Shown: positions 2,740 through 20,224, counted from the first letter of the stretch. The stretch: DNA of 20,224 nucleotides from a virus (IMGVR_UViG_2579778929_000009); one strand, 5' to 3'. Program-made: numbers and translations. The notes: generated by a model not told the origin, from the sequence alone.

Positions 2740-4596
2740 TTATGATGATGCTGGTGCATTTATCTCCAGCACCAGACTTTCTATCTCAACGCCATACGCT
2801 GCATTTTTGGTAATATCCGTCAGCGTCAGCGCATTCAGCCCCAGTGTCAGACTGTCTTTTATGACCTGGAATGCCGGGCCAGCCACTCCATTCAGTTTCG
2901 GAGTAACCGTGGCACTGCCGGCGGTGAACACCAGCTCCAGCGTCTGCCAGTCGTTACTGTAATTCCCGAACTCGCCCAACTTTGTGTTTCCTGCTTTCCT
3001 GTGATGCATCAGATTCAGTTTGCCGTCTGTGGTCTGGGTGAAGAACGACATCAGGAACGGGTTACCAGTCCCGGTCATCGCCACGACGTCAGGTAACGCT
3101 ACATCGGTATACAGATAAATTCCCAGACCGAACTGGTTGTTGGTCAGTGCGCCTGACAGTCGAAACTTACAGCTCAGTCTGCCACCCCGTGTCAGCAGGG
3201 AGACTGCGTCATCCACCGGATGCATCAGGGACCAGGTTTTATTGCTCTGCTTGGTAACCTTAAACACACCATCTTCCAGCGCAACACTGCCGCCGGTGAT
3301 GGTCCAGCCCTGCGCAGCAGCCTCTCCGGCTGTCGGCAGCAGGGAGACTGTACGAACGGATGTGTCACCATCAGACGGCCCCGATGGCGTGTCGCCGCCG
3401 GGCGAGGGTTTAATCTCCGGTGCGGTACCGCTGATGAAGGCGCTGGTTCGACCAACTGCGTTCAGAATAGCGGTTGCCAGGCGATCCGAAATAATGCCCC
3501 TGCGCGCCCATGAACTGAAATGTGTCGGACGATTTGACGATACCCAATTACCATTACTACGGGATTGCGCGCCGTAATAACCTGCATCAGCAATATCCGG
3601 GTCTTCTGCCGGTAAGTTGGTGGGCGTGTTGTTGCCGTTACCGTCGGTCATGAACGGCACAAAGAAAACGTTGTCGCTCTCCCTGTTTTTGTACGCGCCG
3701 TAGACGGAGTCATACTGTGTGCCGTATGTGTTTTTCCAGTAATACGTCGTGTCGCCACAAATCCACGGTACAACTGCAGCACTGCCGCCATGGCACTGCG
3801 CCGCCAGCCCGGCAAGGTCAGCACGGAACTGCTGTACCATTGCAAGAAATGCTGCTGGCTGCTGGGCGTAACTGGCATTCGTCATATCGAATTCCCCCTG
3901 CATCCAGCATATCGCCAGCAAAACGTTTTTCGGGTTTTTCTGCAATGCTGCCTTCGTGCGGAAAAGCAGATCCTGATATAATGGTTTACCCACACCCCAG
4001 CGTGCCGAATCCTGGCTGGCCCCCGTGTCCGCACTGAATGTCCCCTCCGCGCCCTGGGTGAATGCCGAACCACCACGACAGCATGGTACCAGCAGGATCC
4101 CCGCATTATTAGGGATATACGGAAGCAGTTTTTTGGCAATATGTAAGCCCTGTCCGACACAGCCGTACTGCCCTTTGCTCAGGTCAGCCCGGGGATGGTT
4201 AATCGTACTCATATCCTGAACATCATGCAGACAATGGTCAGCAGGAATGATGTCGTTAAATACGCATACTTCACCACCGGGAGTCACTGTGTTACGACGG
4301 GCCAGTTGCTTAATGCGCGGATGGGGCGCATCGTATGAATCCGGAAGCGGAAGCCCTTCACCGTAAGCCATGGCATTGGACTGCCCGGCCAGTACGATGA
4401 CGTAGTACCACTCCGGCTCAGTTGCACCACTGACGACCACATCACCTTCTGCTGCAATCGCCTGCATCAGGGTATAAGGGGTTATGGCCACCGGACTACC
4501 AAACGGCTGCCAGCCCTCTTTCAGTTTATGTGTCAGCTTTTCCGCAAGATCTGACGGCGACGCCGCCCTGACAACATCATAGTGTTTAAATGCCAT
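2740..4596 (-). CDS. Prophage 9-O-acetyl-sialic-acid esterase, NanS-p-like (SGNH/SASA hydrolase)
   Basis: 618 aa with a GQSNA motif near the N-terminal domain (SASA/DUF303-type esterase signature) and a GGGAGGA Shine-Dalgarno. It lies between the tRNA cluster and the holin, which is where nanS-p homologs sit downstream of stxAB in Stx phages. Confidence 0.8.
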   Translation of the reverse strand: MAFKHYDVVRAASPSDLAEKLTHKLKEGWQPFGSPVAITPYTLMQAIAAEGDVVVSGATEPEWYYVIVLAGQSNAMAYGEGLPLPDSYDAPHPRIKQLARRNTVTPGGEVCVFNDIIPADHCLHDVQDMSTINHPRADLSKGQYGCVGQGLHIAKKLLPYIPNNAGILLVPCCRGGSAFTQGAEGTFSADTGASQDSARWGVGKPLYQDLLFRTKAALQKNPKNVLLAICWMQGEFDMTNASYAQQPAAFLAMVQQFRADLAGLAAQCHGGSAAVVPWICGDTTYYWKNTYGTQYDSVYGAYKNRESDNVFFVPFMTDGNGNNTPTNLPAEDPDIADAGYYGAQSRSNGNWVSSNRPTHFSSWARRGIISDRLATAILNAVGRTSAFISGTAPEIKPSPGGDTPSGPSDGDTSVRTVSLLPTAGEAAAQGWTITGGSVALEDGVFKVTKQSNKTWSLMHPVDDAVSLLTRGGRLSCKFRLSGALTNNQFGLGIYLYTDVALPDVVAMTGTGNPFLMSFFTQTTDGKLNLMHHRKAGNTKLGEFGNYSNDWQTLELVFTAGSATVTPKLNGVAGPAFQVIKDSLTLGLNALTLTDITKNAAYGVEIESLVLEINAPASS

Positions 4597-4818: not shown

Positions 4819-4823
4819 GCCCA

Positions 4824-5060
4824 CAAGAAAACCCCTCCGGAGAGGGGCTAAAGCCGCGTATCTGTATCATCATGCACATGGTGCCGGGTGCCTCCCGGTG
4901 AGTTCAGCCCGGTGCCACTAAACCCGCGTCATTCTCGTTTTGATAATCAGAGATTATACCGTCACCAGTCGCCCCTCCGCTCAGGGGGATTCACCATGCG
5001 AAATTTTTTTAACAAATGCCCAGTCTGACAGGCAACTGTCAACTTACTGAATTGTGAGCA
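4824..5060. repeat. Paralogous non-coding module A (~235 bp), hairpin-rich
   Basis: Shares conserved blocks with module B: cccctccggagaggggct, catggtgccgggtgcctcccggtga, gcccctccgcNcagggggattcaccatgc, ttttaacaaa and ctgaattgtgag. Contains three perfect short palindromic hairpins. Confidence 0.7.
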
Positions 5061-5122: not shown

Positions 5123-5310
5123 TGGAAGGATAGCGGTCATGTGATGCCGGTTTCCCGGTAACTCAGCACCGGTATCTGAGTCAACGTTTTCTCTACTGGG
5201 TCATTTCCGATACGCCCTGCCTGCTGACAGGCTTTCATCACATCTGAAAATATAGCACCCTGACTGATACTGTAGTACCTAAGGTTCCAGAAACTGTGAT
5301 GTATCCGGCA

Positions 5311-5530
5311 CAGAAAAGCCCCTCCGGAGAGGGGCTGGAGAGTGGCGCTATGTGCCATTGCATGGTGCCGGGTGCCTCCCGGTGAATTCAGTACCAGCAC
5401 CTGAATCCGCGATTATCCCATATACCTACTCGCTGATTGCCCCTCCGCACAGGGGGATTCACCATGCCAGTTTCTTTTAACAAACTCCCCGCAAACCAGA
5501 CAACAGTCAACCGCCTGAATTGTGAGACAT
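5311..5530. repeat. Paralogous non-coding module B (~220 bp), hairpin-rich
   Basis: Same conserved blocks as module A in the same order. The hairpin cccctc-cgga-gagggg at 5319-5334 is followed by T-rich sequence on the minus strand. Confidence 0.7.
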
Positions 5531-5571: not shown

Positions 5572-5648
5572 TGGCGCGTTGTACTGGATTCGAACCAGTG
5601 ACCGATTGCTTAGAAGGCAATTGCTCTGTCCGGCTGAGCTAACAACGC
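5572..5648 (-). tRNA. argO: tRNA-Arg (anticodon UCU), argO-like
   Basis: Manual cloverleaf: acceptor GCGTTGT/ACAACGC, D-arm AGCTCAGCCGGACAGAGC, anticodon loop CUUCUAA, T-arm GGTTCGAATCC, discriminator G. CCA is encoded. Confidence 0.8.
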
Positions 5649-5661
5649 AGGATACAGATAA

Positions 5662-5738
5662 TGGACCGCCTTCGGGGACCCGAACTCCGCGCAACCAGCT
5701 TCGAAGGCTGGCGCTCTTTCCTGATGAGCTAATGGCGG
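5662..5738 (-). tRNA. argN: tRNA-Arg (anticodon UCG), argN-like; fold has some mismatches
   Basis: Manual fold: D-stem GCTC/GAGC, anticodon stem CCAGC/GCTGG with loop CUUCGAA, acceptor 6 of 7 pairs, T-stem 4 of 5 pairs. Its position between the two other tRNAs matches the ileZ-argN-argO order of Stx phages. Confidence 0.55.
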
Positions 5739-5745
5739 TATGTGA

Positions 5746-5821
5746 TGGTGGCCCTTGCTGGATTTGAACCAGCGACCTGGCGATTATGAGTCGCTCGCTC
5801 TCACCACTGAGCTAAAGGGCC
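5746..5821 (-). tRNA. ileZ: tRNA-Ile2/Met-type (anticodon CAU), ileZ-like
   Basis: GGCCCTTTAGCTCAGTGGTGAGAGCGAGCGACTCATAATCGCCAGGTCGCTGGTTCAAATCCAGCAAGGGCCACCA. Acceptor GGCCCTT/AAGGGCC, anticodon loop CUCAUAA; closely resembles E. coli ileX as I remember it. Confidence 0.85.
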
Positions 5822-9753: not shown

Positions 9754-10032
9754 TTACCTCCAGATCCGTTGCTGGAATGTGCGGGACGGACGCGCTGGCC
9801 GTTCTGAGTAAGGGAGCCTGACGGAGATTATCCAGTGACGGTAGTCGAGGCTAAGGGCTTTTTTAACCTCGCATCCGCGCCCGCGGTAACACTGAATGAG
9901 CCATTCAGCCTGTTCTTCGGTGCAGGGGTCGTGCTGATACCAGTCAGATTTGAATGCATGAGAACGCCGCCCGTGCCTGCTGGCAGGGGCGGCAGAGTTA
10001 TCCGAATTGTAAAATTTGGTATCGTGCGCCAT
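9754..10032 (-). CDS. Hypothetical nin-region protein (92 aa)
   Basis: ORF immediately upstream of, and probably coupled to, the DUF968 gene (stop and start 1 nt apart). No family recognised. Confidence 0.45.
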   Translation of the reverse strand: MAHDTKFYNSDNSAAPASRHGRRSHAFKSDWYQHDPCTEEQAEWLIQCYRGRGCEVKKALSLDYRHWIISVRLPYSERPARPSRTFQQRIWR

Positions 10033-10440: not shown

Positions 10441-12705
10441 TTATACGGAAACTGGCACACGAGCAGGCAATGGATAGTGAGCCCAGTTATTAGCATTTAA
10501 AGCTCTTACGCCATCAGCATAAACTTGTGTTTTTCCATCTAATGATTTTAAAGTTACTACAATAGTTACAGGTAAAGGCTCCATTAAGGCCGGTTCATTC
10601 GCTCTCAACGTTGTTTTAGCTTGAAGAGCCCAGTTACCCGAAGTAATTCCTTTATTAAATGCCTTGCGATGAATTTTTACTGGTGACCACTTTCCACCAT
10701 GCTCAATTTGAGCTCTCTCATATCCAGATTGACCGTTTTCTCCTTCCATAGGTACTTTTCCTTTTATAGTATTATTCTCAATTAAGCCAAAACTTAGCTC
10801 TACGTTCGCGCGAACATATTCACTGCCGGCATTAGGGTTCAGTGGTGGTGCATATGCAGCAGTAATTACAATCTCACCTTTAAATTTTCCATTTTGAATA
10901 AGTGCCGATGGTATGGGATAGTTTTCCTTTCTCCACCTCACCCCAGGAACCAAGAATGTTTGGAAAATCAGAGTAAACCTATCATCACTATCATATAAGG
11001 TCTCAATAACCTCATTAGGAATTCCCGCTCCCAAATAGCGTCTTTCACTTGGCGAGTAATCAGGAGAAGATAATTGAGCGGAATGAATTAATAATGCTTT
11101 AATCAATGATGGTGAAACATTAAAGTCTGAATTAGTGGCTATTCTCTGCCATGTATGCGCAGCTAAACTTGCCACAATTGGAGCAGCAAAACTAGTACCA
11201 AAATTAGAGCAAAGCCTATTATCTGGCCCTACGACCTTTAAACTGCTTGCTCCTACATTCCAAGGTCTATGAACCCCACCGCCAGCATGGATTATATCTG
11301 GCTTTGGAGTAAATACAGGCCCAGGGCCACGACGAGTATATGGTGTCGGTGTTCCAATTTCACTTAAAGCATCATTAGCTTCCATATGAGAAACTGAACC
11401 AACTGTTAGTGCTCGGACTGACTCTCCAGGAGAGGAAATTAAATCAGCACCTCCAAGCGGATCAGGATTTGGCCATGTACGTATAGGTTCATCTACATAA
11501 TTACCTGCAGCAACTACAAACAAAATACCAAATTTATCGCTGAGCCGATCTAACTCCATCGCAAAATCACTAAACATCTGCTCATTACATGGTCCGCCTC
11601 CCAAAGATAAATTCCAGACTTTTATATCTGGTCTTTTATTTACAGCATCTGCTAGCCTCAGAATTAAATCTGATATATAAGATCCATTTTCATCTAAAGC
11701 ACAAACATCATGGATTTTAGATTTTGTATCAGGAATCCATGGATGATTGTCATTTAAAAAATGAGCGCCTGATATCAATGAAGACACCATAGTCCCATGT
11801 TCATAACTCGTATCAGGAGGAATTACGTATGTTTCCCTACTCACTACCCAAGGAGTAATTGTTGCCGCGATGGGGCTTACCCCAGTGTCAAATACAGCAA
11901 CAATGGGTAATTCTTCTGATGGTACGGGAAAGCTATTTGTTTCAATGCCAACAGAATCACTTACACTAACCGGGAATGCTGAATATTTTGGTTCTGGAAT
12001 TAACGTTCTTATACCCGGGTAATCAATGAGAATGTCTAATATATATCTATCATTTGGGGATAAATCCATTATCCTTAATAAGGGAAGACCACATTTTGGT
12101 CTAATCTCATCATATTTAACTCCGTGTTGTTCTAATATAGAAATAACGTTTTCATAGTTGTTGTAAGTTGCATCTTCACCTGTGTACTCAAATAGTCGTA
12201 CAAGGATGTTTGATGATTCAAACAAACCATCAGTGCCTCCTGGAACCTTCCTATTCTCATCCCAAGGTTCAATGCGCTCAATCGCGCTTAGATTAGCCAA
12301 AATCGCTTTAATATTCCGATGTAAAATGACTGACTCTAATACGTCAAAACAGCCGGCATGAGCAGCAACCAACATTTCATCTATTTTGGCATGACCGGCA
12401 TTTTGCAATCCAGCCTCTTGAGCAATTTTGTTCGGCCTATGCGTTTTGGCTATTCCCTGGTCTCTTAATTTGAAAACCAAAGTACCCAAGCTTCCAGGGT
12501 ACTCTGAAAGTTTGGATTCTAAATAATGTTTACTGGTTGTTAAATTTCTTACTAGCCCTTGTCTATATTCGGCTGTTACATCAACCAATACCTTTGCCCC
12601 ACCGCCAGCGTTTACTATTGCACCCAAGTCACTACTGGAAAAAGGGATTCTTAACATTGGGTTTGTAACTTTTGCGTTACTAAACTGTGTACCCCTTCTG
12701 CTCAT
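10441..12705 (-). CDS. S8 subtilisin-like serine protease (IetS-like) with a ~260 aa N-terminal and ~200 aa C-terminal extension
   Basis: 754 aa. Catalytic signature in canonical order: Asp (VAVFDTGV), His (YEHGTMVSS), oxyanion Asn (VVAAGNY), Ser (GTSFAAPIVAS). An AGGAG Shine-Dalgarno precedes the start; the start overlaps the ATPase gene by 26 nt. Codon usage is AT-rich. Confidence 0.8.
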   Translation of the reverse strand: MSRRGTQFSNAKVTNPMLRIPFSSSDLGAIVNAGGGAKVLVDVTAEYRQGLVRNLTTSKHYLESKLSEYPGSLGTLVFKLRDQGIAKTHRPNKIAQEAGLQNAGHAKIDEMLVAAHAGCFDVLESVILHRNIKAILANLSAIERIEPWDENRKVPGGTDGLFESSNILVRLFEYTGEDATYNNYENVISILEQHGVKYDEIRPKCGLPLLRIMDLSPNDRYILDILIDYPGIRTLIPEPKYSAFPVSVSDSVGIETNSFPVPSEELPIVAVFDTGVSPIAATITPWVVSRETYVIPPDTSYEHGTMVSSLISGAHFLNDNHPWIPDTKSKIHDVCALDENGSYISDLILRLADAVNKRPDIKVWNLSLGGGPCNEQMFSDFAMELDRLSDKFGILFVVAAGNYVDEPIRTWPNPDPLGGADLISSPGESVRALTVGSVSHMEANDALSEIGTPTPYTRRGPGPVFTPKPDIIHAGGGVHRPWNVGASSLKVVGPDNRLCSNFGTSFAAPIVASLAAHTWQRIATNSDFNVSPSLIKALLIHSAQLSSPDYSPSERRYLGAGIPNEVIETLYDSDDRFTLIFQTFLVPGVRWRKENYPIPSALIQNGKFKGEIVITAAYAPPLNPNAGSEYVRANVELSFGLIENNTIKGKVPMEGENGQSGYERAQIEHGGKWSPVKIHRKAFNKGITSGNWALQAKTTLRANEPALMEPLPVTIVVTLKSLDGKTQVYADGVRALNANNWAHYPLPARVPVSV

Positions 12706-13834
12706 ATGCTCCTGACTCCTTCAGAATGTTTGAAATTACTCTTGATGTAAGTTTGTACAAATTAGCAAGAACTCTGATAGAAAATAATTTTTTATCTTTA
12801 GAACGTAACCAACGAATTTCATCTTCGTAAGTGCTTAAATTTACACCTTCCATAAGCGATTGCGCAAGATACAAACGCCTATACAATTTATGGTGATTTA
12901 TCACACTTGCACCTTCAATAACTGCATCCCTACGTGCATCCAAGCTCACCTGTTCAATTATTGCTCCGGATAATCCCTCCGATTTTCTTGATAAATCACT
13001 TAAATCTAGATCGCTACATATCATATTCTTTAAACGATTTTTCCAAATTAACTCTCTCTGATGTATGTCAGGCAGAGGCATTGGAATTCTGAAGCTAAAT
13101 CGCCTCCAGATTGCAGGATCCAGAAGTTGCTCATGGTTAGTTGAGGCAATAATTACCGTATCCTCTGATGCCGCATCCATATTCTGCAATAGTGAAATGA
13201 CAACTCGCTGAAGCTCACCTATATCTCTCTCATTACCTCTTGCTCCAGCTAAAGCATCAAATTCGTCTAAAAAAAGCACTGATGGCCTCTGCATTACATA
13301 ATCGAAAACCTGTCTAAGATTTTTGCTGGTTTGTCCCAATAAACTACTAATCAAAGTATCGCAACGCACTGTAAGAAGTGGAAAATCTAAGCGGGTAGCG
13401 ATGTACTTAGATAACATAGTCTTACCTGTTCCTGGCTTTCCATACACGAGCATACGACTCGGCAATGCTGCATCAGCTTTAACAAACTCATCATAACGTT
13501 GAACATTAGTGATAAACTCTTCAACACGGGTACTGATTGCTGCAGGCAGAAAAATCTCTGAACTGTCTAATTTAGGATAACTGACATCAACAGTGTTGAG
13601 TCGACTATCAATATCTACCGGTAATGAGCCCAGAGATATCCCACCTCCAGCCCTTTGAGCTCCTGCCAACGCCTGGGGAGCTCTAAGCAACCTTTCTCTT
13701 ATCATTCTGGCTTGCTTGACCTCCCCTTTTTGTTCGAGCTTATCTGCCAGCAACCCAGCATAATTACTAGCCATCGAAGCATTTGCCTTTGTTGCACCTT
13801 CAATGATTTTTAACACTTCTGATAAATAATCCAT
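12680..13834 (-). CDS. AAA+ ATPase (IetA-like)
   Basis: 384 aa. Walker A GKPGTGKT, Walker B VLFLDEFD, sensor 1 IIASTNH, arginine-finger region PAIWRRF. A GGGAG Shine-Dalgarno precedes the start. First gene of a two-gene operon with the S8 protease. Confidence 0.8.
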   Translation of the reverse strand: MDYLSEVLKIIEGATKANASMASNYAGLLADKLEQKGEVKQARMIRERLLRAPQALAGAQRAGGGISLGSLPVDIDSRLNTVDVSYPKLDSSEIFLPAAISTRVEEFITNVQRYDEFVKADAALPSRMLVYGKPGTGKTMLSKYIATRLDFPLLTVRCDTLISSLLGQTSKNLRQVFDYVMQRPSVLFLDEFDALAGARGNERDIGELQRVVISLLQNMDAASEDTVIIASTNHEQLLDPAIWRRFSFRIPMPLPDIHQRELIWKNRLKNMICSDLDLSDLSRKSEGLSGAIIEQVSLDARRDAVIEGASVINHHKLYRRLYLAQSLMEGVNLSTYEDEIRWLRSKDKKLFSIRVLANLYKLTSRVISNILKESGAYEQKGYTV

Positions 13835-14474: not shown

Positions 14475-15287
14475 TCACTTTTCCGATACAACACGGCGGG
14501 AAGAATCAGTAATCTGTCGAACAATATCCCGGTGCTTGTTCAGCTCCCGCAGCGCGGCGCAGACTCGCTCCCACTTCTGGACATGATTTTTCGCCCGACG
14601 CAGTTCGCGGTTTGCCATATGCAGTGATGGTAAAACCAGGTCATCCGCTCGCGTTTCAGTAAACGATGGCAGCGACTGCACAATGTCCGCCACAGTTTCT
14701 GTTTTAATATCTTCCTGTGTTGCAGCCTCCTGTACTGGTAACGCAACACCTGCGGTATGAGGAAAGGCCTTACCATCAGTTTCCGCTACCGATGCTGCTT
14801 TCGGCTCTGCTGGTAAATTATCGCCCGGTATGCAGTAACGAAATTTACCGCCCTGATTTACGCGAATCAGACGACCTTTGCTGATTGCCATTGCCAGCGT
14901 TGAAGCCACTTTGCGTGATGTGGTACCAAACAATGTAGCCAGCTCATCAGCCATTTGTGGTCCTCGTTGTTCAATCGTCGCGGTTAAATCGCACTCTGAG
15001 ATTTTCGCTACTGTTGCTGTGGTGATTTCTTCCGGCAGTTCTGCCTGCGCTGGCTGTTCCTGCTGAACGTTGTTATCAGCCACACGCCAGGTGTACGCGC
15101 TTTTATCAACAAAACCAGCCTTTTTCAGTTCCCATAGTTCGTTCAGCACTTCTTCACGACTGATATCAAGTCGCGCAGCAAGTTCTATGGATGTGGCTTT
15201 TCCCATTGCTTTCAGTGCGTCAAAAACAGTCTCCATTAAATTTTTCTCCCGGTAAAAATTACTTCGCAATTCCTGGCTGGACGACAT
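14475..15287 (-). CDS. Hypothetical protein with two putative winged-helix/HTH-like segments
   Basis: 270 aa; an alternative start at 15236 (METVFDAL…) is possible. Segments [30 protein letters not shown] and [28 protein letters not shown] look like DNA-binding helices. It follows the DnaC-like gene. Confidence 0.45.
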
Positions 15288-16005
15288 TCGGACGCCAGCT
15301 CTCCCAGTTAAAATTCACCCATAGCCCGCCGTTCATGGTCATGCGATCCATAATCCGCTCGCCGAGCAATGTTTTCATGGCCTCATAGTTCAGGTTTGTC
15401 AGCATCCCCACGCTGCGCATCGACGCTGTCCGGCGATCAACAATCTGGTGCAGTACCACCTGCTCGTTTTTCGTCTCGCGCTGAATGCCAATTTCATCAA
15501 GAACCAGCAGATCCACTTCGCACAGTTCCCGCAAAAATTTTTCGCCTGACTGCCCATCGTCATAGCTGGCGTGGAGGGCACTCATAACATCAGCCACGGT
15601 AACCACAATCACTGTCTGACCGTCTTTCAGCAGGCGATTCCCGATAGCTGCTGCTAAGTGGTTCTTCCCGGTACCAGGTTTTCCGCTAAACGCGAAATTT
15701 GTGCATCCGGTCATCAGTTCATCAGCGATAGATTTCGCCTGGCTCAACGCGTATCGCTGACCGTCGTTCTGCACCTGGTAATTCGCAAACGAGCATTTAC
15801 GGTGCAACGGCTGGATGCCTGAGCGATTCAGAATTTTTTCCACCCGCAACTGGCGATTCAGGCGGTTGATCTCCTCGCTACGTTTCTGGCCTTCAGCAAG
15901 TTGCCACTCGTGCCACTCCGCTACCGTTCTGAATGGGGCGGTTACATGTGGCGGAGCCAGTCTTCGGATACGTTCAAGAACGCCGCCTGCCGCAATGTTT
16001 TTCAT
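15259..16005 (-). CDS. DnaC-like replicative helicase loader (YdaV/IstB-type AAA+ ATPase)
   Basis: 248 aa. Walker [16 protein letters not shown], Walker [10 protein letters not shown]. Located directly downstream of the O-like initiator. Confidence 0.85.
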
Positions 16006-16011
16006 GACACG

Positions 16012-16974
16012 TCACCCCCTGAATCCCGGCGGTATTTCAGTGTCCGGTTCAGAAATGTGATTCACGCAACGCTGCGCAGGCAAACGCCCCAGGCGGATAA
16101 CCAGTTCATCCCATTTTTCCCGGAGTTTTGCCGGACTCATGATGTTTTTTACCCAGAACGAATCCCGCTGGAGACGCCCAAACATTTCACAAATTTGTCT
16201 GTGAGTTCTGCCATCCAGCATCCGCATTGTGCGAACGTCATTGGCCCATGCTGTCCAGTTGGGTTCTTTCGGTCTAGTGATCTCGCCATCATAGCTGGCC
16301 GCCTGCTCGTAAAGACTCACGATTCGTCCCCAGATCCACTGTGCGCACACCAAATCTTCCTGACTTCCCCACTGGCGTTTTTTCGCACTGAACACAACCG
16401 CGTCAGGGTGTCGGGTTAAAAAATCCTGTTCAGCCGTCTGCGGGTCCGGTTGCGAAGCGTCCGGACAAGAAGATCTTTTATCTGACGGATCAGGTTTTAA
16501 TACTGACGGATCGGGGTCAATCATCGGCCCCCTAATCGGCAGTTTTTTATCAACAGTTGATCCATCAAAATTTGACGGGTCAACCGTTGAGGGGTCAATA
16601 TTTGACGGGTCAACTGTTAACGGGTCATTTTTTGCCGGGCTAATTTTTCTTTTCGGTTTATATGACTCACGCGCCGCCGCCGCAGCTGCTTCGAGTTTTT
16701 CCACATTAAGCCGATAGATATTGCTTACATTACGCCCACCGACCTTACGCTCTTCCTTCGTCAGCCAGCCCTCTTTCGCCAGTTCTGCAATAGCCGATTT
16801 CACTGTGGATTCACTTCTTGCACCGATCTGACGCCGGATAGTTTCAATGGCAGGCCATGACACGCCCTCGTCATTGCTGTAGTCTGCAAGACGGGCCATA
16901 ACCGCCACCCTGGATAAGATCATGCCGGTGAAGGCGCACCCTTCCCAGACAAGACCATGAAGCTTGCTGCTCAT
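16012..16974 (-). CDS. Replication initiator (lambda O-like, YdaU-type) containing origin iterons
   Basis: N-terminal HTH-like region (ARLADYSNDEGVSWPAIETIRRQIGARSESTVKSAIAELAKEGWL). Central repeated peptide DPSNIDPSTVDPSNFDGSTVD is encoded by the iteron DNA. ATG at 16974; the six-frame ORF starts at a GTG at 16989. Confidence 0.7.
   Translation of the reverse strand: MSSKLHGLVWEGCAFTGMILSRVAVMARLADYSNDEGVSWPAIETIRRQIGARSESTVKSAIAELAKEGWLTKEERKVGGRNVSNIYRLNVEKLEAAAAAARESYKPKRKISPAKNDPLTVDPSNIDPSTVDPSNFDGSTVDKKLPIRGPMIDPDPSVLKPDPSDKRSSCPDASQPDPQTAEQDFLTRHPDAVVFSAKKRQWGSQEDLVCAQWIWGRIVSLYEQAASYDGEITRPKEPNWTAWANDVRTMRMLDGRTHRQICEMFGRLQRDSFWVKNIMSPAKLREKWDELVIRLGRLPAQRCVNHISEPDTEIPPGFRG
16483..16640. 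repeat. Iteron-like direct repeats (candidate replication origin) inside the initiator gene
   Basis: Several copies of TGACGG(A/G)TCA-like units, including two long near-identical units tttgacgggtcaaccgttgaggggtcaata and tttgacgggtcaactgttaacgggtcat, followed by an A/T-rich stretch. Confidence 0.55.
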
Positions 16975-16996: not shown

Positions 16997-17422
16997 TTAG
17001 TGCATCACCACAGCATTCCCTGCCGGGCCGCCGCGATTCATCTGGTCATACAAAACAACCGCTGACGCAACAAAATCATCGACATCCTTCCCCAGCCGAT
17101 CCCTCCGTTCGACGATCTCACGGTAATATTCAGAACTGTGGCTGCGCATACGGGCCACCAGCAAAGGCGGCATCGCCTTTTCGATCGCCGGTAACAGAGC
17201 CTGCATTTTTTCAACAGCATCAGGGGTGTCTTTATCCAGCCAACGGAAAATTTTCTGGGTATTACGGGCCAGGGCTTCCGGATGGCTGTCGTCATACAGT
17301 TCCGGGAACGTCATTCCCAGCTCGAAATACGCTTTGGTAATTTTCGCAGCCGGCACTTTTTCGCCGTCCGGATGCGCCCAGACATTCATCGCCATGCGGA
17401 TGTGTTCATGCTTGATTTTCAT
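16997..17422 (-). CDS. YdaT-like protein (CII-position gene of Rac-type immunity regions)
   Basis: 141 aa. The N-terminus MKIKHEHI matches my recollection of Rac YdaT. It follows the Cro-like gene. Confidence 0.65.
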   Translation of the reverse strand: MKIKHEHIRMAMNVWAHPDGEKVPAAKITKAYFELGMTFPELYDDSHPEALARNTQKIFRWLDKDTPDAVEKMQALLPAIEKAMPPLLVARMRSHSSEYYREIVERRDRLGKDVDDFVASAVVLYDQMNRGGPAGNAVVMH

Positions 17423-17687
17423 GAATCAAGCTCCTAGAAAGTGGTTGTGTTAACGTTTTGGTATCTTCCAGCTCGGGCCAAATATTCATCCAATCAAAAG
17501 GCCTTAGTTGCTGACGTGTAACTTCACCATTACTGGCTCGCTCAATAAGGACACATAACGATGCCCCTAACACTTGACCTTTACTCAATGCCTTTCTTAG
17601 ATAACCGATGCTGGTACCACACTCGCATGCAAACATACGCTGTTCATCTGACGAAAGAGAATTGAGAAATATTCTTAATTCTTCCAT
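17406..17687 (-). CDS. Cro-like HTH regulator (YdaS/DicC family)
   Basis: 93 aa. HTH CGTSIGYLRKALSKG; the C-terminal ERASNGEVTRQQLRPFDW resembles YdaS ERATRGEVLCEELRPDIDW (from memory). Perfect AAGGAG Shine-Dalgarno. Divergent from the repressor gene. Confidence 0.7.
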   Translation of the reverse strand: MEELRIFLNSLSSDEQRMFACECGTSIGYLRKALSKGQVLGASLCVLIERASNGEVTRQQLRPFDWMNIWPELEDTKTLTQPLSRSLIHENQA

Positions 17688-17787
17688 AGCTACTCCTTAG
17701 TAAACACAGCAAAGAATACCCACAGGTAAACAAAAGTCAATACCCACAGGTTGTTTACCTTGCGGTAATCGCATCTATTATTTACCT
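17688..17787. promoter_or_regulatory. Divergent immunity-region control region (OR-like) with operator half-palindromes and promoters
   Basis: Two TACC-N4-GGTA-type sites, tacccacaggta (17717-17728) and tacccacaggtt (17741-17752), 24 bp apart. Minus-strand promoter: TTGACT then TATTCT upstream of the Cro-like gene. Plus-strand TATTAT -10 ends about 7 nt before the repressor ATG, implying a leaderless or near-leaderless mRNA. Confidence 0.5.
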
Positions 17788-18207
17788 ATGGACAAATATG
17801 AATTTAGACGACAGCAACTCATCAAAATTCGTGATGAGAAATGCGATGGTAAAGCGGTTAACGTGGCCAGAAAGATCGGGCGCGAGCCTTCTTATGTATC
17901 AAGAATGTTGTACCCAGAGGGGAAAAAGGGAAAAAAACGGATCGCTGATGATATGGTGGAGATTATCGAAGAGTCCTTTGGGTTACCCCGGGGATGGATG
18001 GATGGTATCGTTTCATCATCAACGAACACAGCCTCCAGTTATGAAACAAGGGTTCTAACGCCACGACAACGTATTTTTTTAGATCTCTTAGACGAACTGC
18101 CAGAAAGTGAAGCGGATAAATTATTAAAAACTCTTGAAGAGAAAAAACAGTATTACAATATGATCTACGAAGAAATCCGTAAAAAGAAAGCACAAAACGC
18201 ATCATAG
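17788..18207 (+). CDS. Prophage repressor, DicA-like C-terminal domain with an N-terminal HTH
   Basis: 139 aa. HTH GKAVNVARKIGREPSYVSRMLY. The C-terminal LTPRQRIFLDLLDELPESEADKLLKTLEEKK resembles DicA …LSPKELELLELFNALPESEQDTQLAEMRARV (from memory). No Shine-Dalgarno upstream of the ATG. Confidence 0.65.
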   Translation: MDKYEFRRQQLIKIRDEKCDGKAVNVARKIGREPSYVSRMLYPEGKKGKKRIADDMVEIIEESFGLPRGWMDGIVSSSTNTASSYETRVLTPRQRIFLDLLDELPESEADKLLKTLEEKKQYYNMIYEEIRKKKAQNAS

Positions 18208-18249
18208 CTCACCAAACAACTAGTCACCAGTTAAGACACCGCAAAAATT

Positions 18250-18290
18250 TACCCATGGGTATTTACTTTTTAAATACCTATGGGTATCCT
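18250..18290 (+). promoter_or_regulatory. OL-like operator pair and candidate pL-like promoter downstream of the repressor gene
   Basis: Perfect palindrome tacccatgggta (18250-18261) and tacctatgggta (18275-18286), 25 bp apart, bracketing a candidate promoter (TTTACT, 17 nt spacer, TATCCT) oriented toward the ydfA-like to dicB genes. Confidence 0.45.
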
Positions 18291-18472
18291 TCTTTTCATA
18301 CCAACCCACCCCGCCCCACAGAATGCAGGGCAATACTTCGAGTTACCAGGCAGTGGTCAGGGGTTAAGTAGCCAGCCCGAGGCGTAAGAACATGACGGCA
18401 GGGTTCAACTTTAATAACTATGCAGCAGGTTTTTGTTCCGCTACCCCGGCGTTAAGGGGAAATGAGGTCAAC

Positions 18473-18625
18473 ATGGATATGCTCAATCTTGGCAACAACG
18501 AATCTCTGGTATGTGGCGTGTTCCCCAACCAGGACGGCACGTTTACCGCGATGACGTATACCAGAAGCAAAACGTTTAAAACTGAAGCTGGCGCGCGTCG
18601 CTGGTTAACCAGAAACACTGACTGA
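18473..18625 (+). CDS. DUF1391 small protein (YdfA/YdaF-like)
   Basis: 50 aa from the internal Met (MDMLNLGNNESLVCGVFPNQDGTFTAMTYTRSKTFKTEAGARRWLTRNTD) with a GAGGT Shine-Dalgarno; resembles YdfA/YdaF as I recall them. The six-frame ORF extends upstream to 18392. Confidence 0.65.
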   Translation: MDMLNLGNNESLVCGVFPNQDGTFTAMTYTRSKTFKTEAGARRWLTRNTD

Positions 18626-19276: not shown

Positions 19277-19608
19277 TTCACCCTCCTGAGGGTTGGTAAT
19301 TAAGGAGTTCTCCACGGGTCAGGTGGAGTGCGTGCGCCGGACACGGGTGAACATCCGGCACTGACAGTTTACTGAAAGGATATGTCCCTGAAAAGTCAGG
19401 GCATAACGCGAAAGCGCACGGCGAAATTGGTCTCTCTGTACGGTGTCGTTAAATTTAGTTCGACCGTGCGCTTCCGGTTGTGGCAATCCGCGAAATGGTG
19501 CGGCGGTAAGTATGGCGGGGTTATTCCTTCCCCCGTTGAGGACACCGGGTTGTCAGGTTGACCATACGCTTAAGTGACAACCCCGCTGCAACGCCCTCTG
19601 TTATCAAT

Positions 19609-19661
19609 TTTCTGGTGACGTTTGGCGGTATCAGTTTTACTCCGTGACTGCTCTGCCGCCC
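19609..19661 (+). ncRNA. dicF: DicF small regulatory RNA
   Basis: The 53 nt TTTCTGGTGACGTTTGGCGGTATCAGTTTTACTCCGTGACTGCTCTGCCGCCC matches the DicF sequence as I recall it exactly, is followed by TTTTT, and sits just upstream of dicB as in Qin. Confidence 0.85.
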
Positions 19662-19835
19662 TTTTTAAAGTGAATTTTGTGATGTGGTGAATGCGGCTGA
19701 GCGCACGCGGAACAGTTAAAACCAAAAACAGTGTTATGGGTGGATTCTCTGTATCCGGCGTTAATTGTTAACTGGTTAACGTCACCTGGAGGCACCAGGC
19801 ACCGCATCACAAAATTCATTGTTGAGGACGCGATA

Positions 19836-20024
19836 ATGGAAACGTTATTACCAAACGTTAATACGTCTGAAGGTTGTTTTGAAATTGGTGTCACTATCAG
19901 TAACCCAGTATTTACTGAAGATGCCATTAACAAGAGAAAACACGAACGGGAGCTATTAAATAAAATATGCATTCTTTCAATGCTGGCCCGTTTACGTCCG
20001 ATACAAAAAGGATGCTGGCAATGA
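19836..20024 (+). CDS. dicB: Cell division inhibitor DicB
   Basis: 62 aa METLLPNVNTSEGCFEIGVTISNPVFTEDAINKRKHERELLNKICILSMLARLRPIQKGCWQ, near-identical to the DicB sequence I recall; GAGGA Shine-Dalgarno; downstream of dicF. Confidence 0.8.
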   Translation: METLLPNVNTSEGCFEIGVTISNPVFTEDAINKRKHERELLNKICILSMLARLRPIQKGCWQ

Positions 20025-20224
20025 ATACAGCATTTGCACTTGTTCTGACAGTTTTTCTTGTTTCCGGAGAGCCAGTTGATATTGCAGTCAGTGTTCACAG
20101 GACAATGCAGGAGTGTGTGATGATCTCATATCAGGAACTTGTTCGCACCTTCCTTACCCGGTCGATAAAGTTATTCACCAGGATAATAACGAAATCCCGG
20201 CAGGTCTTTAAAACAGTTCCGTAA
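20021..20224 (+). CDS. YdfD-like small protein (phage lysis-associated, DUF1482-type), coupled to dicB
   Basis: 67 aa. The ATG overlaps the dicB stop (ATGA). Hydrophobic N-terminus MNTAFALVLTVFLVSG. Its position after dicB corresponds to ydfD in Qin. The ORF ends at the window edge with TAA. Confidence 0.55.
   Translation: MNTAFALVLTVFLVSGEPVDIAVSVHRTMQECVMISYQELVRTFLTRSIKLFTRIITKSRQVFKTVP

Follow-up and report, generated by a model that had tools for sequence, protein, structure and literature searches.

A predicted lambda-style immunity switch with a chimeric repressor in a lambdoid Escherichia coli prophage

The immunity systems closest to the region considered here, which covers positions 17,688 to 18,290 of a viral DNA of 20,224 nucleotides (IMGVR_UViG_2579778929_000009; this whole stretch is called the window below), are those of phages lambda and mEp043, of the prophage CP-933P of Escherichia coli O157:H7 and of the Qin prophage of E. 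coli K-12. In CP-933P, whose system comprises PaaR2, YdaS and YdaT, the repressor has no peptidase motif, its mRNA was found to be leaderless by 5' RACE, and a right operator (OR), a left operator (OL) and an establishment promoter (PRE) are all present (PMC8630535). This repressor binds OR and OL and activates the maintenance promoter (PRM) at low dose, being aided by YdaT at a PRE-like promoter (PMC8630535, PMC9986795), and the YdaT site, TTGATT-N6-AATCAA, has been footprinted and positioned at the ydaS/ydaT junction (PMC9986795). In Qin, the repressor DicA, also without a cleavage domain, represses dicBp and is relieved either by the antirepressor Rem or by a RecA-independent, DicC-dependent flip (PMC10448788). 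Very probably, a lambdoid E. coli prophage has its immunity (lysis/lysogeny) switch in this region, bistable in the style of lambda; this reading is built on operator-like sites and their statistics, promoter hexamers, homologies and conservation across a family of related loci.

The motif TACCNNNNGGTA has four exact matches in the window (17717-17728, 17756-17767, 18250-18261 and 18275-18286) against a shuffle expectation of 0.15, and none of 100 shuffles reached four, by which chance palindromes were ruled out as the source of the TACC-N4-GGTA sites. Allowing one mismatch adds a site at 17741-17752 (TACCCACAGGTT), and all five sites fall in two clusters either side of a 139-aa gene, the predicted repressor gene. 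Three of them (O1, O2 and O3; Table 1) are placed in the 100-bp gap between the divergent cro and repressor genes (17688-17787), at offsets of -71, -47 and -32 from the repressor ATG, where they are interleaved with the hexamers of two predicted promoters, PR and PRM. The initial annotation had described an operator pair at 17717-17752; both of its sites are real (O1 and the imperfect O2), but the exact site at 17756-17767 had been overlooked, so that the right operator consists of three sites rather than a pair. The second pair that it had placed downstream of the repressor gene (18250-18286, here OL2 and OL1) stands as described, and TACCCATGGGTA is indeed a perfect 12-bp palindrome. Extra sites with two mismatches, at 17783-17794 over the repressor ATG and at 17691-17702 over the cro Shine-Dalgarno, are not conserved in relatives and were therefore taken as chance matches. 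As well, YdaT was ruled out as the TACC-N4-GGTA binder, since its own site is TTGATT-N6-AATCAA and since the TACC sites are retained in mEp043 and in most relatives, which have no ydaT.

A consensus promoter scan of 17500-18500 gave exactly two promoter-like sites, both inside the cro-repressor gap. Read in the PR direction, the order is O2, TTGACT, 6 nt and then O1, whose final TA opens the -10 hexamer, and the PR leader carries an AAGGAG Shine-Dalgarno ahead of the cro ATG at 17687. The predicted early-left promoter (PL) repeats this design with OL2, TTTACT, 7 nt and OL1, whose final TA opens TATCCT; because the layout of operators and hexamers is repeated, the sites at PR and PL alike are centred at about -16.5 and -41. 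A second operator set is present at this predicted promoter, from which DUF1391, a 137-aa open reading frame (ORF), DicF, dicB, exo, xis and int would be transcribed. Such interleaving of operators with the PR, PRM and PL hexamers, in a geometry that recurs in mEp043 and in 45 of 57 related loci, supports the resemblance to the OR/OL layout of lambdoid phages that the initial annotation had pointed out.

Compared with lambda itself, the window has in common three operators between divergent promoters, with the middle one weakened and one site centred near -42 of PRM, a leaderless repressor mRNA (predicted in the window), a second operator set at a PL co-directional with the repressor gene, and a CII-type site at the junction of cro with the following gene (cII in lambda). 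The two differ in that there is no sequence similarity, the window sites measure 12 bp rather than 17 bp, O2 and O3 are 15 bp apart rather than 23 bp, OL comprises two sites rather than three, and the window repressor has no S24 domain.

The TATTAT hexamer of PRM ends 6 nt ahead of the repressor ATG (17788), which is the first start codon in frame after the upstream stop, and no GGAG, GAGG, AGGA or AAGG was found in the 25 nt ahead of it, in agreement with the earlier remark that this ATG lacks a Shine-Dalgarno and closely follows a -10 element. The repressor mRNA is therefore predicted to be leaderless, since the PRM transcript would start at or beside the A of the ATG. The same idea, a leaderless or near-leaderless message, had been put forward initially and gains support from related loci, where the best -10-like hexamer ends 7-8 nt ahead of the ATG in 40 of 52 cases and Shine-Dalgarno motifs are mostly absent. 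In one locus, where the three-site cluster has moved 13 nt upstream, an AAGGAG Shine-Dalgarno is present, which fits the leaderless rule.

A closely related immunity region is that of the lambdoid coliphage mEp043 (PV340537.1, NC_019706), which shares 65% identity in the repressor DNA-binding domain, 73% in Cro and the same TACC-N4-GGTA consensus. Its sites before cI lie at 2929 (exact), 2954 (GGTT, a defect in the same half) and 2969 (exact) as in the window, a downstream pair at 4096 and 4121 (25 bp apart) precedes N in the same layout, and a TAGAAT -10 is likewise placed 6 nt ahead of the cI ATG. The mEp043 cI differs in being 228 aa long with a Peptidase_S24 C-terminus, and should be RecA-cleavable, while the window repressor has a DicA/Tritos-type C-terminus; moreover, mEp043 pairs its cassette with a lambda-type cII and the antiterminator N, whereas the window pairs it with YdaT. 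A literature search found no paper on mEp043 immunity. An extra TACC-N14-GGTA palindrome is also present upstream of the mEp043 OL pair (4054-4075 of the extracted locus).

To place the cassette in a wider family, 57 loci drawn by a profile of the N-terminal domain were compared, one genome per species, from gamma-, beta- and alpha-proteobacteria (Edwardsiella, Klebsiella, Pantoea, Yersinia, Aeromonas, Vibrio, Neisseria, Burkholderia, Xanthomonas, Stenotrophomonas, Ferrovum, Rhizobium and others). Of the 57 loci, 45 carry three sites, which begin at -72/-73, -47/-48 and -32/-33 relative to the ATG, and the middle one is imperfect always in the same half-site (GGTT, GGGA, GGTC or GGCA). A downstream pair with 25-26 bp spacing, bracketing a TTGAC-like hexamer and running into a TA-rich -10, is found in 42 of the 57, and the PL design shows a stronger promoter consensus across the family than in the window. 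In 290 kb of related loci, 143 of the 159 exact sites fall in operator clusters, and over 174 sites the TACC and GGTA positions are 94-100% conserved while the central four bases vary. A Cro homologue divergently adjoins the repressor in 49 of the 57 loci, and the protein segment EPSYVSRMLY, the predicted recognition helix, varies little or not at all. The window itself carries every element of the mEp043-type cI/Cro cassette, namely an MDKYE... N-terminus with EPSYVSRMLY, a cognate Cro, the three-site layout and the downstream pair (PHROG 5736/12107; no Pfam model). A search of 1.84 billion representative proteins with the N-terminal domain brought up 624 clusters (counted at 50% identity) with E ≤ 1e-3 and 223 with E ≤ 1e-10, and the lengths of family members, running from about 72 to 400 residues, indicate that the C-terminal partners vary.

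Several subgroups depart from this layout. In beta-proteobacterial members (L029, L030, L033, L037, L039, L040, L042 and others), the cro ATG, in the stretch some 85-95 nt upstream of the start of the repressor gene, is about 9-10 nt from O1 and only about 7 nt past the PR -10; there both divergent genes appear leaderless, unlike the leadered E. coli cro. The Klebsiella loci L007, L010, L011, L013 and L014 keep O1, and L010, L011 and L014 also O3, while O2 is replaced by TTTGCTATATTTT; in this variant right operator no more than one or two sites can be recognised. Two Advenella loci (L055 and L060), distant 119-aa relatives, have no TACC-N4-GGTA and show instead an upstream TACC-N12-GGTA or TACC-N12-GGTG palindrome; in these, as in the extra mEp043 palindrome, the half-site may function with a spacer of another length.

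The repressor is a domain chimera, in that its N-terminal helix-turn-helix (HTH) is of the mEp043 type and its C-terminal hairpin of the DicA/Tritos type. At full length it matches PHROG 5736 ('transcriptional regulator'); it has no Pfam match, HTH_3 included, and the N-terminal 75 residues gave none when the limit was relaxed to E 10, and in a tblastn search of phage genomes residues 1-86 are 65% identical to mEp043 cI. The protein ends at residue 139 with no Peptidase_S24 match, a domain that mEp043 cI and most relatives have. Residues 86-136 align to positions 81-131 of NCBIfam PRK09706 (DicA) at E 1.9e-5, so the DicA-like C-terminus noticed at the outset was correct. The wording 'DicA-like repressor' holds, however, only for these last ~50 residues; the DNA-binding domain is mEp043-cI-type without HTH_3, which DicA itself matches at E 1e-16, and the whole protein scores 24.5 bits against PRK09706 where the cut-off is 101, which leaves it outside the DicA family. 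The C-terminus is also 72% identical to that of phage Tritos CI, whose N-terminus is a canonical HTH_3, and the same chimeric architecture is found in Salmonella, Serratia and Yersinia. When the last 56 residues were used in a word-indexed protein search, nothing but fragments of this same repressor came up.

AlphaFold without an alignment gave an unusable model (mean predicted local distance difference test, pLDDT, 51.7), which was replaced by an alignment-based one at 83.8. In the latter, the N-terminal domain is predicted as four helices (3-18, 23-30, 34-40 and 54-63) in an XRE/434-repressor-like fold, the linker 76-87 as disordered, and the C-terminus as a helix-turn-long-helix (92-103 and 106-138) with a pLDDT of about 90; this helical hairpin is probably an oligomerisation domain. 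The modelled two-domain architecture resembles Rep of Salmonella phage SPC32H (PDB 5D50, Rep-Ant complex), from which it differs in having 16-18% identity and a large root-mean-square deviation owing to a different domain orientation, and no Ant homologue was identified in the window.

The intact form is the dominant allele, one repressor cluster holding 543 sequences. The gene contains G4, A5 and A7 homopolymer runs (17919-17937, the A7 being 17931-17937), and more than 10 E. coli protein clusters are frameshift fusions of an overlapping +1 ORF (start 17798, MNLDDSNSS...) to the repressor C-terminus. When IMG/VR was scanned for the exact patterns, A7 had at least 120 matches, A8 none and A6 one, by which phase variation at the A7 run was ruled out; the fusions are therefore taken as rare mutations or sequencing errors.

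The relation to Qin extends beyond the C-terminal ~50 residues and the short, cleavage-domain-free form shared by the two repressors. Both loci have the same order of cro-like gene, repressor, promoter, DUF1391 (ydfA), DicF and dicB, DUF1391 showing 84% identity across 49 residues, and the DNA of the DicF-dicB stretch 93% identity. They differ in that DicA has a canonical HTH_3 and different operators, and its antirepressor Rem has no homologue in the window.

A working scheme for the switch can be drawn from these features. The N-terminal HTH of the repressor would recognise the 12-bp TACC-N4-GGTA palindromes; bound at O1 and O2 it would cover PR and silence cro-ydaT-O-dnaC, and bound at OL1 and OL2 it would cover PL and silence the DUF1391/DicF/dicB/exo/xis/int operon. 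From O2, centred 41.5 bp upstream of the predicted repressor start, it might activate PRM as lambda CI does from OR2, while O3, lying over the PRM -35, would shut the repressor gene off at high repressor levels. Cro, from the same type of cassette, would compete for the same sites, and YdaT could bind the cro/ydaT-junction box and boost repressor synthesis during establishment. The repressor should escape RecA cleavage, because the S24 self-cleavage domain is replaced by the DicA/Tritos-type hairpin, and induction would then proceed via an antirepressor or a stochastic, Cro-driven flip. The conditional steps of this scheme, which comprise binding, oligomerisation, the activation of PRM from O2, the places where transcription starts and the way of induction, gain support from two studied relatives, the CP-933P repressor and DicA, both without a cleavage domain.

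The CII-like part of the scheme is most comparable to CP-933P. The window YdaT is identical at 139 of 140 residues to the CP-933P protein (PDB 8BT1) and 31% identical to Rac YdaT, and TTGATTTTCATGAATCAA, the only 0-mismatch YdaT-box match in the window, occupies the same junction as in CP-933P. With both the protein and the junction box present, the sequence indicates YdaT/CII-analogue control of the CP-933P type. Other points in common are a leaderless, peptidase-less repressor divergent from a Cro-like gene across ~100 bp, the logic of OR, OL and PRE, and a bistable switch, all of which are predicted in the window; the window Cro is, in addition, distantly homologous to YdaS (E 1e-10). On the other hand, the CP-933P operators are 18-bp repeats with the consensus GTTTAGTAA rather than TACC-N4-GGTA, and PaaR2, compared here by its description, starts MQKKE and is followed by the paaA2-parE2 toxin-antitoxin pair, which is absent from the window.

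Other explanations have been weighed for the repressor gene and its start. The repressor could be translated mainly from a longer, leadered transcript, e.g. from a YdaT-activated PRE-like promoter in the cro/ydaT junction, the -10 near the ATG being incidental. The perfect YdaT box at 17412-17429 does imply that a promoter directed at the repressor gene lies upstream, and the promoter scan gave a count no higher than chance, but a -10-to-ATG distance fixed in 40 of 52 family loci with Shine-Dalgarno motifs mostly absent, as well as the gain of a Shine-Dalgarno in the single locus with a displaced operator cluster, speak for the leaderless start; a PRE transcript would be expected beside that of PRM during establishment, not in its place, and a mainly leadered message is thus considered unlikely. 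In a less credible explanation, and a highly improbable one, only Cro binds the TACC-N4-GGTA sites, and the 139-aa protein is what truncation has left of an S24-type cI, without function. The repressor DNA-binding domain is always accompanied by Cro, so that co-occurrence cannot separate the two binders, and the protein does lack the S24 domain that most family members carry. Its C-terminus, however, is not a truncation but a conserved helical domain modelled with good confidence and shared with Tritos CI and DicA, and the two-domain architecture recurs in three other genera; the intact form is the dominant allele and the module is present in 822 E. coli genomes, while the geometry of O3 and PRM makes sense only for repressor autoregulation.

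The downstream pair raises a further question, for OL2 and OL1 can pair in RNA as a 16-bp hairpin (-22.2 kcal/mol, z score -7.6, with 0 of 200 shuffles folding as well) followed by the U-rich UCCUUCUUUU. This pair might be exclusively an intrinsic terminator that prevents read-through into the DicF/dicB operon and not an operator at all, given that the repressor gene and the PL operon are co-directional and that no other terminator-like structure lies between the repressor stop (18207) and PL. An exclusive terminator is nevertheless quite unlikely, since the OL 12-mers share the consensus of the OR sites, in 42 of 57 relatives the pair brackets a TTGAC-like -35, often at a distance of hundreds to thousands of bp from the repressor stop, and in mEp043 a separate terminator, rich in GC, precedes the pair. 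Such a hairpin would also form from any palindrome that is present twice at a short distance. A double role of the OL pair, as operator and as terminator of the repressor transcript, is more likely than the exclusive role, and is itself suggested only tentatively.

Several observations weigh against the lysis/lysogeny switch proposed here. The two promoter-like matches in the 1-kb region are no excess over the 2.2 expected by chance, and PL agrees with 8 of 12 consensus positions, under the scanner threshold; the weight rests on the placement of the hexamers relative to the operators, not on the promoter count. The autoregulatory logic may differ from that of lambda, because the 15 bp between the centres of O2 and O3 put these sites on opposite helix faces, compared with 23 bp in lambda. 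As for induction, no antirepressor was found, tblastn giving no match to Rem in either the window or the wider prophage, nor does the window contain a LexA box (CTGT-N8-ACAG); the 92-aa ORF at the rem-equivalent position (9754-10032), tried as a Rem-like antirepressor, is unrelated to Rem. The role given to the C-terminal domain is derived from a predicted helical hairpin only. A literature search found no published binding, footprint or transcript-start data for this element or repressor family, and a search for the operator motif strings gave no match. Moreover, the portal gene is annotated as frameshifted in strain TUM14664 (positions 1-1982 of the extracted locus), where the prophage is otherwise identical, and for this reason the prophage, at least in the TUM14664 copy, may be defective.

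Table 1. Predicted operators, promoters, genes and other features of the immunity region (window coordinates).
Feature	Position	Strand	Description
O1	17717..17728	.	TACCCACAGGTA, exact; in PR spacer, overlapping first two bases of PR -10; centre ~-16.5 from predicted PR start
O2	17741..17752	.	TACCCACAGGTT, one mismatch in PRM-proximal half-site; abuts PR -35; centre -41.5 from predicted PRM start
O3	17756..17767	.	TACCTTGCGGTA, exact; overlaps PRM -35
OL2	18250..18261	.	TACCCATGGGTA, perfect 12-bp palindrome directly upstream of PL -35
OL1	18275..18286	.	TACCTATGGGTA; in PL spacer, last two bases begin PL -10
PR (predicted)	17713..17740	-	-35 TTGACT 17740-17735, 16-bp spacer, -10 TATTCT 17718-17713; for cro-ydaT-O-dnaC
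PRM (predicted)	17754..17781	+	-35 TTTACC 17754-17759, 16-bp spacer, -10 TATTAT 17776-17781
PL (predicted early-left promoter)	18262..18290	+	-35 TTTACT 18262-18267, 17-bp spacer, -10 TATCCT 18285-18290; start ~18297; read from sequence
OL-pair RNA hairpin	18250..18296	+	16 bp, -22.2 kcal/mol, then UCCUUCUUUU; possible intrinsic terminator of repressor transcript
Repressor gene	17788..18207	+	139 aa; XRE-type HTH (mEp043-cI family), disordered linker 76-87, C-terminal DicA/Tritos-type helical hairpin
cro	17406..17687	-	93 aa; mEp043-type, distant relative of CP-933P YdaS
ydaT	16997..17422	-	CII-like activator, CP-933P allele; Pfam YdaT_toxin; PHROG 163 'CII-like'
YdaT (CII-analogue) box	17412..17429	.	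TTGATTTTCATGAATCAA, exact TTGATT-N6-AATCAA at cro/ydaT junction; left edge of cassette
PL operon leader	18297..18472	+	~176 nt, non-coding, before DUF1391 (ydfA-like) gene; right edge of cassette

The rightward genes had initially been described as a Rac-type module, which is true of dnaC (96% identity to ydaV) and DUF1627 (99% to ydaW) only; the module is a mosaic. The window Cro, 73% identical to that of mEp043, matches PDB 8co2/8c7k at E 1e-10, aligns to Rac YdaS over 28 residues only and scores 25.8 against a Pfam YdaS_toxin cut-off of 30, while O shares only its last 19 residues with YdaU and is otherwise unrelated to Rac. Residues 74-93 of Cro, the last ~20, have no counterpart in the 76-aa mEp043 Cro; cro overlaps the ydaT start by 17 nt, and its 3' end seems to be the product of a recombination joint, because the last ~9 codons (17406-17434) sit within a conserved cro/ydaT junction shared with Tritos.

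At the DNA level, the window shares with Rac 14787-16048 (96%; ydaW, ydaV and the tail of O), 30 nt (17399-17428) and also 18297-18460, with Tritos 17008-17434 (86%) and 18304-18604 (94%), and with Qin 18435-18604 and 19291-20224. The segment specific to this immunity type is therefore delimited to about 17435-18296, since homology to Rac, Tritos and Qin stops at its edges, where the YdaT box lies on the left and the predicted PL start on the right. The PL leader beyond the right edge is conserved from 18297/18304 on (87% to Rac, 94% to Tritos) and gave no Rfam family at threshold; it also matches several phages with different immunity regions, with nothing annotated there, and may encode a regulatory RNA or contain a site for antitermination.

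The 1.4 kb around the switch match several E. coli chromosomes at 100% identity and E2348/69 at 99.7%, and at least 80% of this region was found in 822 of 5,426 complete E. coli genomes. The host element is a lambdoid E. coli prophage integrated beside ompW, in which int, xis, exo, ydfD, dicB, DicF, two small ORFs and the 139-aa gene follow in order on one side, and cro, ydaT, O, dnaC, DUF1627, DUF977, iteA/iteS, DUF968, rusA, Q, tRNAs, lysis genes, terminase and capsid on the opposite strand. The anti-phage genes iteA/iteS (an S8 peptidase and an ATPase) occupy 10441-13830 (-), between the replication genes and DUF968/rusA/Q. Rfam matches comprise two copies of the small RNA STnc100 and three tRNAs (among 4819-5028, 5306-5496 and 5575-5821), DicF (19610-19661) and, at the window edge (1-72), a truncated ALIL pseudoknot, an insertion-sequence frameshift element.

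Switches of this kind are textbook matter, and non-cleavable lambdoid repressors are already known in DicA, PaaR2 and RacR; the specific repressor family, by contrast, is unstudied. Across three proteobacterial classes, its operator specificity and promoter geometry appear frozen while the C-terminal domain is exchanged. It is conceivable, though rather doubtful, that this represents one unstudied immunity family, in which the predicted recognition helix, half-sites, three-promoter geometry and leaderless start are near-invariant and only the 'input' domain at the C-terminus (S24 peptidase, DicA-like hairpin or others) is replaced. In that case, family members would be largely homoimmune, and a prophage with a non-cleavable repressor would gain SOS-proof immunity against SOS-inducible relatives such as mEp043, while its own induction would need a different signal, e.g. 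an unknown antirepressor or a Cro-driven flip. The locus provides a testable switch map with five operators, three promoters, a CII-type box and the cassette edges, carried by at least 822 of the 5,426 complete E. coli genomes. Two inhibitors of cell division, DicF and DicB, would be under the control of this switch, yet the product of its 139-aa repressor gene is labelled 'hypothetical protein' in RefSeq, and the locus exposes a repressor DNA-binding family of 624 clusters (at 50% identity) that has no Pfam model. It also offers a natural system for asking how the induction signal of a repressor is rewired with binding unchanged, and whether such phages exclude one another.

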